DNA of 64,000 nt from Parcubacteria group bacterium GW2011_GWA1_56_13 (GTDB lineage Bacteria; Patescibacteriota; Minisyncoccia; Phycocordibacterales; Phycocordibacteraceae), in NCBI GenBank assembly GCA_001004905.1, contig LCRY01000002.1:1559-65558 (forward strand), read 5' to 3'; not shown here. The text below continues a report on this DNA, generated by a model with database tools.

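Follow-up and report, generated by a model that had tools for sequence, protein, structure and literature searches.

The MurB-SecA spacer

The spacer between MurB and SecA (60641-60887) contains an ordered series of elements that is conserved in relatives (L016-L023 and L091). The series begins with a DnaA box, TTATCCACA (60641-60649), which is a perfect match and the sole perfect one in the window. It is followed by a -10-like element, GGGATAAT, a leader hairpin, CGTTTGCGC...GCGCAGACG, a short ORF encoding MAKKRKAAKRTKKRKAAKRRR (60779-60844) and finally an intrinsic terminator. One pair of the hairpin covaries among relatives, and in one of them (L020) the hairpin sequence is fully different with the pairing retained. 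The product of the short ORF ranges from 17 to 39 aa in relatives, with varying repeat number. No match to Rfam was found. A longer ORF of 109 aa (60515-60844) is probably spurious. The arrangement may represent a small basic protein, so far without annotation, that is preceded by a structured leader.

Translation starts

Shine-Dalgarno motifs are nearly missing upstream of start codons throughout the window, and AGGAGG was found only at the 69-aa ORF c52. Six genes that follow an intergenic gap have a TATAAT-like hexamer that ends 8-12 nt ahead of the start codon: the TrwB-like gene (4345), the SDR epimerase/dehydratase c15 (18877), the PseB-like c33 (35864), the ABC half-transporter c53 (55492), the Wzy_C-TPR gene c54 (57310) and SecA (60928; upstream context TGgTATAAT). 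Judged from sequence, the position of these hexamers and the scarcity of Shine-Dalgarno motifs suggest leaderless mRNAs.

Variation in and around the glycan locus

MurB of the closest relative (L089, 12143-13216) shares only 40% identity with MurB of the window, its neighbours Wzy_C-TPR and SecA share 79% and 69% with their window counterparts, and MurB proteins of more distant relatives reach 58-63%. The low identity in the closest relative may reflect a gene replacement. On the left side, the RsmI-TrwB interval measures 0.4 kb in the window (3940-4344) versus 2.6-9 kb in relatives (L029, L031, L035 and L036), and might represent a second variable spot immediately left of the glycan locus. 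In the adjacent TrwB/TraG-like gene (4345-6153), two bases (AA) of ENA scaffold_245 are missing from the window at 5877-5898, which splits the 602-aa ORF. Other assemblies have Ns or differing sequence at this site; the gene is probably not a pseudogene but split by an assembly problem. Within the locus, the 2015 Rifle MAG (LCSC01000007; L007 15649/15650) carries a 65-bp deletion without Ns in the GT2 gene c11 (window 16198-16262), which breaks the gene into ORFs of 82 and 145 aa. The deletion could be genuine variation in the population, or else an error of curation.

In this strain and in the ENA scaffolds, SecA is followed by an IS200-type Y1 transposase gene (minus strand, 63521-64000; comparison of L012 with L013). 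The UBA MAG (DQGO01000013) departs from the window sequence after 62831 and has no Y1 transposase gene. Relatives and the scaffold of this strain encode giant predicted surface proteins that lie downstream of GatB or SecA, a few genes away (L022 20856-22202; L023 20068-22214; L013 17003-20047). Peptidase_S74 is found in a protein of 4407 aa, a PTL_trimer/Ig-like domain in one of 1839 aa and an LCAT domain in one of 1014 aa. Possibly, these are glycan acceptors or adhesins.

Gene content and gene fusions in relatives

The locus versions of relatives (L090, ENA k141_84436, 3133-19394; L022; L023; L089) include B12/radical-SAM enzymes, a carbamoyltransferase, two pyruvyl transferases and dTDP-rhamnose genes with a Wzx flippase, as well as a cytidylyltransferase-PEP mutase fusion, a phosphonopyruvate decarboxylase and an Fe-ADH, a set from which a phosphonate decoration is predicted. 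Further fusions join CTP_transf_3 to an aldo-keto reductase (L092 14478-16148, 556 aa) and DUF218 to GFO_IDH (L093 5100-6725, 541 aa). Members of the family of c17, a GT-C without a Pfam model, occur as fusions with GtrA, with GT2 or with a methyltransferase (P0364, P0369, P0405, P0412, P0438 and P0449). These last three kinds of fusion in relatives provide useful Rosetta-stone links for genes whose role is unclear.
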